From the IMG/VR virus record IMGVR_UViG_648276671_000016: 18,138 nt of DNA; one strand, given 5' to 3'. The position numbers and the translations under genes are program-made. Positions 17,556 through 18,138 of this stretch are shown piece by piece (within the stretch, counting starts at the first letter, position 1; the number at the start of each line of letters is the position of its first letter). The notes below the pieces were generated by a model. That model was not told the DNA's origin and made no database searches. It was given only the letters and a program-made list of their open reading frames with translations. This DNA is from a virus. Taxonomy: Duplodnaviria; Heunggongvirae; Uroviricota; Caudoviricetes.

Positions 17556-17900
17556 ATGACTCAAAACTATGAACTGGTTGTGAAAGGAACCCGCAATTAC
17601 GAGGATAAAGTTGCGGTAACTGTAGCATTACGGGACAAAAAACGCTTTGACGGTGAAATTTTTGACCTGGACATCTCGCTGGACCGTGTTGCAGGTGCCG
17701 CGCTGGAGTTTTATGAGGCAGCAGCCAGGAGGCGCATCAGACAGGTCTTCCTGGATGTCGCTGCCGGGTTATGTGAAGGGGATGTGCAGTCACCGGAAAA
17801 GCGCCCCGTAATTTTAGAGGCGCAGAATGTATGGATAACCTACAAAGGAAAGCTACCGGGAAGAATTACTGGTTCCCTGAAGACTCCGCCGAAATGGTAG
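17556..17900 (+). CDS. Hypothetical protein translationally coupled to the holin
   Basis: 114-aa ORF starting 5 nt after the holin stop with RBS GGGGAGAG. No SAR/TM segment and no lysozyme motifs, so it is not the expected endolysin. Confidence 0.5.
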   Translation: MTQNYELVVKGTRNYEDKVAVTVALRDKKRFDGEIFDLDISLDRVAGAALEFYEAAARRRIRQVFLDVAAGLCEGDVQSPEKRPVILEAQNVWITYKGKLPGRITGSLKTPPKW

Positions 17901-18138
17901 TTTTGCCAGCATAATTTTCTTCCAGCAATGCCGCCAGCCACTTGAAAGAATTTTGTTGTTCCTGGGACCATTTGGGGTTGCGTGATTCAAAATGAATGGA
18001 TGCCAGCGTTGGCAGCATTTGCTCCCTGGGAATTGATAAGGCCAGATGTGAAAATGCGACCGTGAGGGCATTAACATCATCCCGAAGCCTGGAGATGCAG
18101 CCGAGCAACTCCTGTAGAGAAATGGTGCTATTGTCCAT
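17866..18138 (-). CDS. Hypothetical protein, convergent with and overlapping the previous gene; possibly 5'-partial at window edge
   Basis: 90-aa minus-strand ORF whose Met codon is the last three nt of the window. Its 3' end overlaps the 3' end of the 17556-17900 gene by 35 nt. No plus-strand ORF exists in 17901-18138. Confidence 0.4.
   Translation of the reverse strand: MDNSTISLQELLGCISRLRDDVNALTVAFSHLALSIPREQMLPTLASIHFESRNPKWSQEQQNSFKWLAALLEENYAGKTTISAESSGNQ

Follow-up and report, generated by a model that had tools for sequence, protein, structure and literature searches.

In phage 21 the endolysin gene lies directly behind the holin gene. The window, by which we mean the whole stretch of 18,138 nt of viral DNA that was analysed, ends in a lysis region of related type in which the holin gene is followed by two small ORFs: one of 114 codons on the same strand and one of 90 codons, called A in the following, on the opposite strand. 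The questions raised by this locus are where the endolysin gene is to be found and what the two ORFs in its place are. An earlier note on this DNA, made from the sequence alone, had proposed that the endolysin is displaced or absent and that the two ORFs form a convergent pair of the kind typical for prophage accessory genes. We consider it probable that they are two genuine and functionally independent genes, ydfR and A, in a normal phage-21-type cassette, and that A is a moron expressed in the lysogen. The coordinates of all features are listed in Table 1.

Table 1. Features discussed in the text. Plain positions refer to the window; positions in other loci are given with the handle of the locus.
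Feature	Position	Strand	Basis or remark
Class II holin gene, phage-21-type (pinholin S21-like)	17336..17551	+	71 aa, dual start MKSM
114-aa ORF (ydfR family, DUF1327)	17556..17900	+	Pfam, phrog, RefSeq
90-aa ORF A (phrog_2411 family), antisense to late operon	17866..18138	-	conservation
3' overlap of ydfR and A	17866..17900		35 nt
Weak terminator-like hairpin in ydfR, only candidate 3' end of the A transcript	17590..17603	-	consensus scan
Insert, part inside the window (first ~81 codons of A)	17896..18138		alignment with PhiR40_1
Leader hairpins of distant A-family genes	L011:4960-5003; L015:4958-5003; L019:414-458; L020:778-823; L022:73-117; L023:3926-3970		
A paralog on plasmid	L008:3960-4229	-	
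A paralog on plasmid	L024:5001-5270	+	
Solitary distant A-family member	L017:5001-5279		92 aa
A/B pairs, Atlantibacter and L019	between tail genes M and L		
A/B pairs, Brenneria and Yersinia	after tail gene I		
A/B pair, Klebsiella	upstream of terminase		
A/B pair, L020			sixth prophage context
AraC-family regulator gene	16414..17157	+	247 aa
Promoter-like site and terminators of the AraC-family gene	16235-16257; 16359-16388; 17217-17234		
Inverse autotransporter gene	9081..12554	+	1157 aa
BD-FAE esterase gene	12586..13629	-	347 aa

The arrangement of the window end agrees with what the earlier note had described. The 114-aa ORF starts directly after the holin gene, with about 4–5 nt between the holin stop codon and its ATG, and its 3' end overlaps that of the convergent A. 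The last three bases of the window are the ATG of A, which is read from there to the left, and each of the three plus-strand frames of the final 238 nt (17901–18138) contains 2–5 stop codons and thus offers no coding capacity. The edge of the window is not the end of a contig: genomes identical to the window run on to the right, and the start of A at the edge is the one annotated by RefSeq in relatives. The product of the holin gene reads MKSMDK at its N-terminus and matches PF04971 (Pfam, E=6.7e-34). The gene encodes 71 aa in the window-identical genomes as well, and the RefSeq relatives, with a length of 216 nt, are labelled essD or class II holin. A longer holin ORF from 17306 is probably unused. 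For hundreds of E. coli genomes RefSeq gives the order essD, YdfR family protein, hypothetical protein. The layout has been annotated before, though only under the names "YdfR family protein" and "hypothetical protein", and it is ordinary for the lysis cassettes of E. coli-type lambdoid prophages, being otherwise of the normal phage-21 type.

An exact look-up of the A protein returned genomes in which the last 1209 nt (L025 and L028) or 3785 nt (L026) of the window recur unchanged. In both L025 and L028 a spacer of 104 nt past the window edge is followed by the gene of a 176-aa lysozyme (PF00959) starting MNVKVRYGLSAAVLVLIGAGASAP, and then by Rz (PF03245) and terminase genes. Judged from its sequence, the N-terminus of the lysozyme looks SAR-type. 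Endolysin and Rz were therefore found on the right of the window, where the earlier note had proposed to look for them, and only the first half of "displaced or absent" stands. Because L025 and L028 continue with lysozyme and Rz, the endolysin is displaced by two small genes but not absent, and it lies only ~380 nt further downstream than in phage 21. The cassette resembles that of phage 21 (S21, R21, Rz/Rz1) in its S21-type dual-start holin and in the SAR-like lysozyme and Rz downstream. It differs in that ydfR and the antisense A separate holin and endolysin by 690 nt, whereas in phage 21 the endolysin follows the holin directly. E. coli relatives share the layout of holin, ydfR, A and lysozyme. 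The gene order reads S21 holin, ydfR, A in antisense, SAR lysozyme and Rz. The apparent anomaly is mostly cleared: the lysis cassette is intact, and the protein that had seemed unknown is a familiar passenger, YdfR.

The 114-aa protein is soluble, as had been claimed (no transmembrane segment), but it is not of unknown family. It matches the YdfR family (DUF1327, PF07041) with 137.6 bits against a cutoff of 25, residues 1–112 being aligned to model positions 1–92, as well as phrog_406/2091, and RefSeq names it 'YdfR family protein'. A PF04971 holin gene lies directly upstream and, in the window-identical genomes, a PF00959 lysozyme gene downstream; YdfR holds this place in thousands of E. coli prophages and is the passenger usually met between class II holin and lysozyme genes of lambdoid prophages. 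The YdfR of K-12 Qin shares PF07041 and the same slot (order essQ-ydfR-rrrQ, with an overlap of 4 nt between ydfR and rrrQ), and its residues 1–72 are 78% identical to those of the window protein. From about residue 74 on the two differ: K-12 YdfR has 103 aa, ends in a helix and is not followed by an antisense gene, whereas the window protein has 114 aa, ends KGKLPGRITGSLKTPPKW and is followed by A. In the AF2 model of the window protein (overall pLDDT 58.8) residues 5–73 form three strands and a helix with pLDDT 65–86, and the C-terminal tail (71–114) is of low confidence. A structure search of the PDB with this model gave no fold match, and a sequence-profile search of the PDB gave nothing for either the YdfR or the A family.

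The C-terminal variants of YdfR all diverge right after GSLKTPP. Where an antisense gene comes next the protein ends with KW, and where there is no antisense gene it ends with ESQP or EF. The site just after GSLKTPP was observed to be a recurrent recombination junction in the YdfR family. Variants of 176 or 183 aa (P0103, P0124, P0141 and P0174) are common; they have ~65 more helical residues past GSLKTPP, containing SEKDDIESPIEKLE and then FAAFYDYCIEVTRRNFVKIFEEGKSLQ. The idea that this extension is an A-like domain fused in frame was rejected (hhalign probability 0.2%).

The only functional paper on YdfR that a literature search returned concerns the K-12 protein. According to two-hybrid and pull-down assays its residues 1–72 bind RNase E, namely the catalytic half at the N-terminus; RNA co-purifies with the protein, and its overproduction changed the transcriptome very little (PMC13232886). 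The window protein is basic (pI 9.1) and, by homology to K-12 YdfR, may bind RNase E as well. Most likely it is an accessory protein that binds RNase E and/or RNA, is produced late in infection and does not serve as a lysis effector; its gene is the second cistron of the late operon and has a GGAGAG Shine-Dalgarno sequence. The earlier note had allowed that the 114-aa protein might be recognised as a known lysis accessory component. This applies in part: the protein is a recognised passenger of lysis cassettes. The link between YdfR and RNase E offers a testable idea of why lambdoid phages place this gene between holin and endolysin.

For A we compared the ORF with shuffled sequence and with its relatives. 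Shuffles of 17556–18138 gave at least 90 open codons in 29% of the cases, and the status of A as a gene therefore rests on its conservation and not on the ORF as such. Across five diverse E. coli-type loci and the 79 codons without overlap, the frame of A gave dN/dS ratios of 0.14–0.40 at dS values reaching 0.65; for the out-of-phase frames the ratio was about 1 or higher. The plus-strand frame which shares its wobble positions with A also shows a low ratio, as expected, and is closed by stop codons. All E. coli-type loci keep the ORF at 273 nt. A plasmid paralog has 270 nt, and both there and in distant relatives, at identities of 24–57%, the ORF is intact. A matches phrog_2411, a PHROG family of unknown function, over its full length (E=7.1e-54, residues 1–90 of 90 on 90 of the 90 profile positions), as does the plasmid paralog at E=2.6e-35, and searches of Pfam and NCBIfam gave no match. 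A similarity to the anti-silencing protein Mip was dismissed at 12.5 bits against a cutoff of 50. The protein is acidic (pI 5.2) and, like YdfR, soluble (GRAVY −0.33 and −0.34 for the two proteins). Its AF2 model consists of three helices (pLDDT 79.7), with the last 11 residues (80–90) disordered and below 50. A comparison of the model with PDB and BFVD found nothing below E=0.1. Thus the proposed remote-homology and structure searches were successful for YdfR, which Pfam recognised, but returned no PDB match for either protein and no BFVD match for A. A literature search on the A family and its accession numbers found nothing. Given the dN/dS ratios and the family conservation on the one hand and the missing fold, domain and literature matches on the other, A is a real but uncharacterised gene under purifying selection. 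Its product most likely acts through binding another protein. What is added here to phrog_2411 is the purifying selection, the distribution, the contexts and the predicted fold.

The insertion of A can be seen from an alignment of the junctions in ATCC 11775, which carries A and is 98% identical to the window over 17840–18138, and PhiR40_1, which has the same YdfR tail and no A. The insert measures ~295 bp, extends from about 17896 in the window to ~50 nt upstream of the ATG of A and replaces 19 unrelated nt of PhiR40_1, in which a 116-aa YdfR is followed by the lysozyme gene 63 nt on. About 30 nt of the overlap between ydfR and A are DNA common to prophages without A (alignment of PhiR40_1 and K-12 Qin), and the last ~10 codons of A, i.e. 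the disordered tail, are therefore ydfR-homologous sequence. As the insert is present in some prophages and missing between the same neighbours in others (PhiR40_1 and K-12 Qin), A is a moron, and the earlier note was right to see in it an opposite-strand accessory gene inserted in a late operon. Like the lambda-type morons (bor next to Rz, lom), whose transcription runs against the late operon or apart from it, A is a small extra gene, present or absent, that adjoins the lysis genes on the opposite strand and comes with a ribosome-binding site of its own and a putative promoter. In contrast to bor and lom, its product is not a lipoprotein or outer-membrane protein but an acidic cytoplasmic protein of three predicted helices, and the gene has no clear terminator of its own, its 3' end overlapping the upstream late gene.

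The earlier note had proposed to look for the true 5' end of A to the right of the window. The ATG at the edge is the start given in the annotation of relatives, and a conserved Shine-Dalgarno sequence, AGAGGA, lies 7 nt upstream of it beyond the edge; the 5' UTR and a putative promoter would also be located there. In the window-identical L025 we detected the sigma-70-like TTTACA-16-TATGTT 62 nt upstream of the ATG, which matches the consensus at 9 of 12 positions and is no commoner than in shuffles. A second consensus match upstream of A, TTGAAT-19-TACAAT, is conserved in variants and likewise not enriched over shuffles. The hairpin in ydfR has a stem of 5 bp and lies 265 nt downstream of A; the count of such hairpins is not above that in shuffles. 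No plus-strand terminator was found between ydfR and the lysozyme gene, and late transcripts must consequently cross A in antisense. A would be transcribed against the late operon from its own putative promoter, from which we infer that it is probably expressed in the lysogen and that, once the prophage is induced, late transcription meeting it head-on shuts it off. As a gene under selection through which late transcripts pass on their way to the endolysin gene, A could have an effect on the timing of lysis or on the physiology of the lysogen.

Distant A-family genes have a conserved hairpin 15–25 nt before the start codon, with a stem of 6–7 bp, compensatory changes at three pairs and a loop that hardly varies, G(G/A)ATGG(C/T)TGATTA(A/C). 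GGA motifs occur at the edge of this stem and in the Shine-Dalgarno sequence. The leader of A in E. coli prophages contains a different hairpin, GCCTG-TTGAAT-CAGGC. Rfam returned no family for the window end or for the hairpin upstream of the distant A genes.

The DNA of A is present at a coverage of at least 80% in 1133 of 5426 complete E. coli genomes (21%), and a further ~1780 complete genomes match the tail of ydfR alone. A is a very common antisense gene in the lysis regions of E. coli prophages, those of Stx-converting phages included, and is annotated everywhere as hypothetical. In phiSTEC1575-Stx2k the holin, ydfR and A are kept at 82% identity and an unrelated lysis cassette comes after them, which amounts to the usual mosaic behaviour. 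An apparent tandem duplication of A in L026 (4001–4761, scaffold GL884341.1) is an artefact, with a run of Ns between overlapping contig ends. The family as a whole is small. A profile search of 1.84 billion representative proteins yielded members with 24–40% identity in Klebsiella, Atlantibacter, Brenneria, Sodalis and other enterobacteria, a genome scan added a single locus in Yersinia massiliensis, and a search of IMG/VR with the Klebsiella and L019 members as queries found nothing. The plasmid paralog (89 aa, ~57% identical) occurs on 74 E. coli plasmids of IncF type, 70 of which are conjugative, and at least 1000 contigs are on record with the identical protein. Two of the plasmids were examined, and both have a very large autotransporter gene 308 nt upstream of the paralog and the gene of an HTH regulator close by. 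On the Sodalis chromosome an A-family gene is found without YdfR. One distant member, on an enterobacterial metagenome contig, is solitary between dinI and bssS, with no prophage genes nearby.

YdfR occurs without A in K-12 Qin, PhiR40_1 and the ~1780 genomes mentioned above, and the A family occurs without YdfR on plasmids and chromosomes. The main rival to the reading as independent neighbours is that ydfR and A form one functional, mobile two-gene cassette in which a late-strand gene, B, and the opposite-strand gene A overlap at their 3' ends. We regard this as unlikely. Arguments for it come from six distant prophages. In all six prophage contexts found outside E. coli, A runs in antisense to the late operon and converges on a late-strand ORF of 60–85 aa (B). 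A and B overlap by 7–47 nt in five of the six contexts, and in Brenneria, where the copy of A is truncated, a gap of 61 nt separates them. Among the B ORFs there is a weak but significant relationship, with Smith-Waterman shuffling z values of 7.0 (Brenneria-Yersinia), 5.1 (Atlantibacter-Brenneria) and 3.9 (Klebsiella-Yersinia). When an HMM of five non-E. coli B tails was run against a background of 3239 ORF segments, the tail of the 114-aa YdfR (KGKLPGRITGSLKTPP) came out on top, and the K-12-type YdfR, which occurs without A, has no match to the B tails. For the YdfR tail by itself disorder is predicted, a frequent property of short binding motifs; the tail might, doubtful as this is, derive from B. 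Equally tentative is the idea that A, as an acidic protein produced by the lysogen, would bind to a short C-terminal motif of the late B protein or antagonise it; that the overlapping mRNAs would lead to two mutually exclusive expression states likewise seems to us a possibility of low likelihood.

Several observations speak against a joint cassette. The match of the 114-aa YdfR to the B-tail HMM is weak (E 0.08–0.5 in a small database, pairwise z 2.2–2.4), BLASTP of the B ORFs against this YdfR gives no alignment, and the B motif was first spotted by eye. The ~1780 E. coli genomes and PhiR40_1 have the same YdfR tail without A, and no B accompanies A on plasmids and in two chromosomal contexts. 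Furthermore, where the genes of a late operon are packed densely, any antisense insert will of necessity converge with the gene upstream of it. DNA-level conservation downstream of the A genes, which might have explained the B motif, was looked for and not found. As the match of the YdfR tail is weak, we keep two independent neighbours as the best explanation. If the rival were true, the convergent B/A pairing across genera would represent a new mobile prophage cassette. Its components would be A and the motif [KQS]-G-x-[LIV]-x4-[IL]-x-G-[DS]-[LIV]-x2-P of the convergent gene, and it is rather unlikely, though conceivable, that they make up such an undescribed element of Enterobacterales prophages. 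With similarly low expectation we note that it would insert at holin/endolysin, between tail genes M and L and after tail gene I, and that its distant members would have the covarying hairpin in the 5' leader of A. Its role might, again with more doubt than confidence, be that of a lysogeny-versus-lysis switch or of a protein/anti-protein pair, with the B half in E. coli fused to the RNase E-binding domain of YdfR.

A role of A, alone or together with YdfR, in defence, anti-defence, superinfection exclusion or as a toxin-antitoxin element is less probable again. Opposite-strand morons in late operons often have defence-type roles, lambda bor being an example, and A is widespread, mobile, small and acidic, the latter two as in many phage-encoded inhibitor proteins. 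However, the defence and toxin-antitoxin roles named in the earlier note find no counterpart in the searches: PADLOC-DB v2 (HMM, E up to 1) has no family for YdfR, A or the plasmid paralog, and the toxin-antitoxin models in PADLOC and Pfam do not match A or YdfR. Neither a transmembrane segment nor a nuclease or toxin-like domain was detected, and A has no fold match. Toxin-antitoxin pairs are arranged as a co-directional operon or consist of a hydrophobic toxin and an antisense RNA. The convergent orientation of ydfR and A does not fit a type II operon, and both products are soluble, unlike type I toxins.

Very unlikely, in our estimate, is a function at the RNA level, by which the transcript of A would extend in antisense into ydfR and the holin gene and damp leaky expression of the lysis genes in the lysogen, the protein being secondary. 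Complementary RNAs are guaranteed by the 3' overlap, and only the weak hairpin in ydfR lies between the stop codon of A and ydfR/holin, but the amino-acid sequence of A is under strong purifying selection and the family is conserved as protein where there are no lysis genes to regulate. That the minus-strand ORF is a spurious antisense frame and ydfR alone is real, an objection already raised in the earlier note, is refuted by the substitution pattern over 238 nt that have no gene on the other strand, by an ORF that stays intact down to 24% identity and also in non-phage contexts, and by the conserved Shine-Dalgarno sequence, even though frames of this length are frequent in shuffles and Pfam and NCBIfam hold no match.

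The window carries other cargo besides A. Between the holin gene and Q, which has a tR'-like terminator, the cargo slot is taken by an AraC-family regulator gene; in Stx phages this is the position of stx. A promoter-like site of its own (10/12 matches) and flanking terminators belong to the gene, and in a megablast (near-identity) search of the complete E. coli genome collection no match covered this segment. In the early region, between the replication gene P and the nin region, we observed a gene for an inverse autotransporter of the intimin/invasin-like type, with IAT_beta and Big_1/Invasin_D3 repeats, and convergent with it the gene of a BD-FAE esterase.
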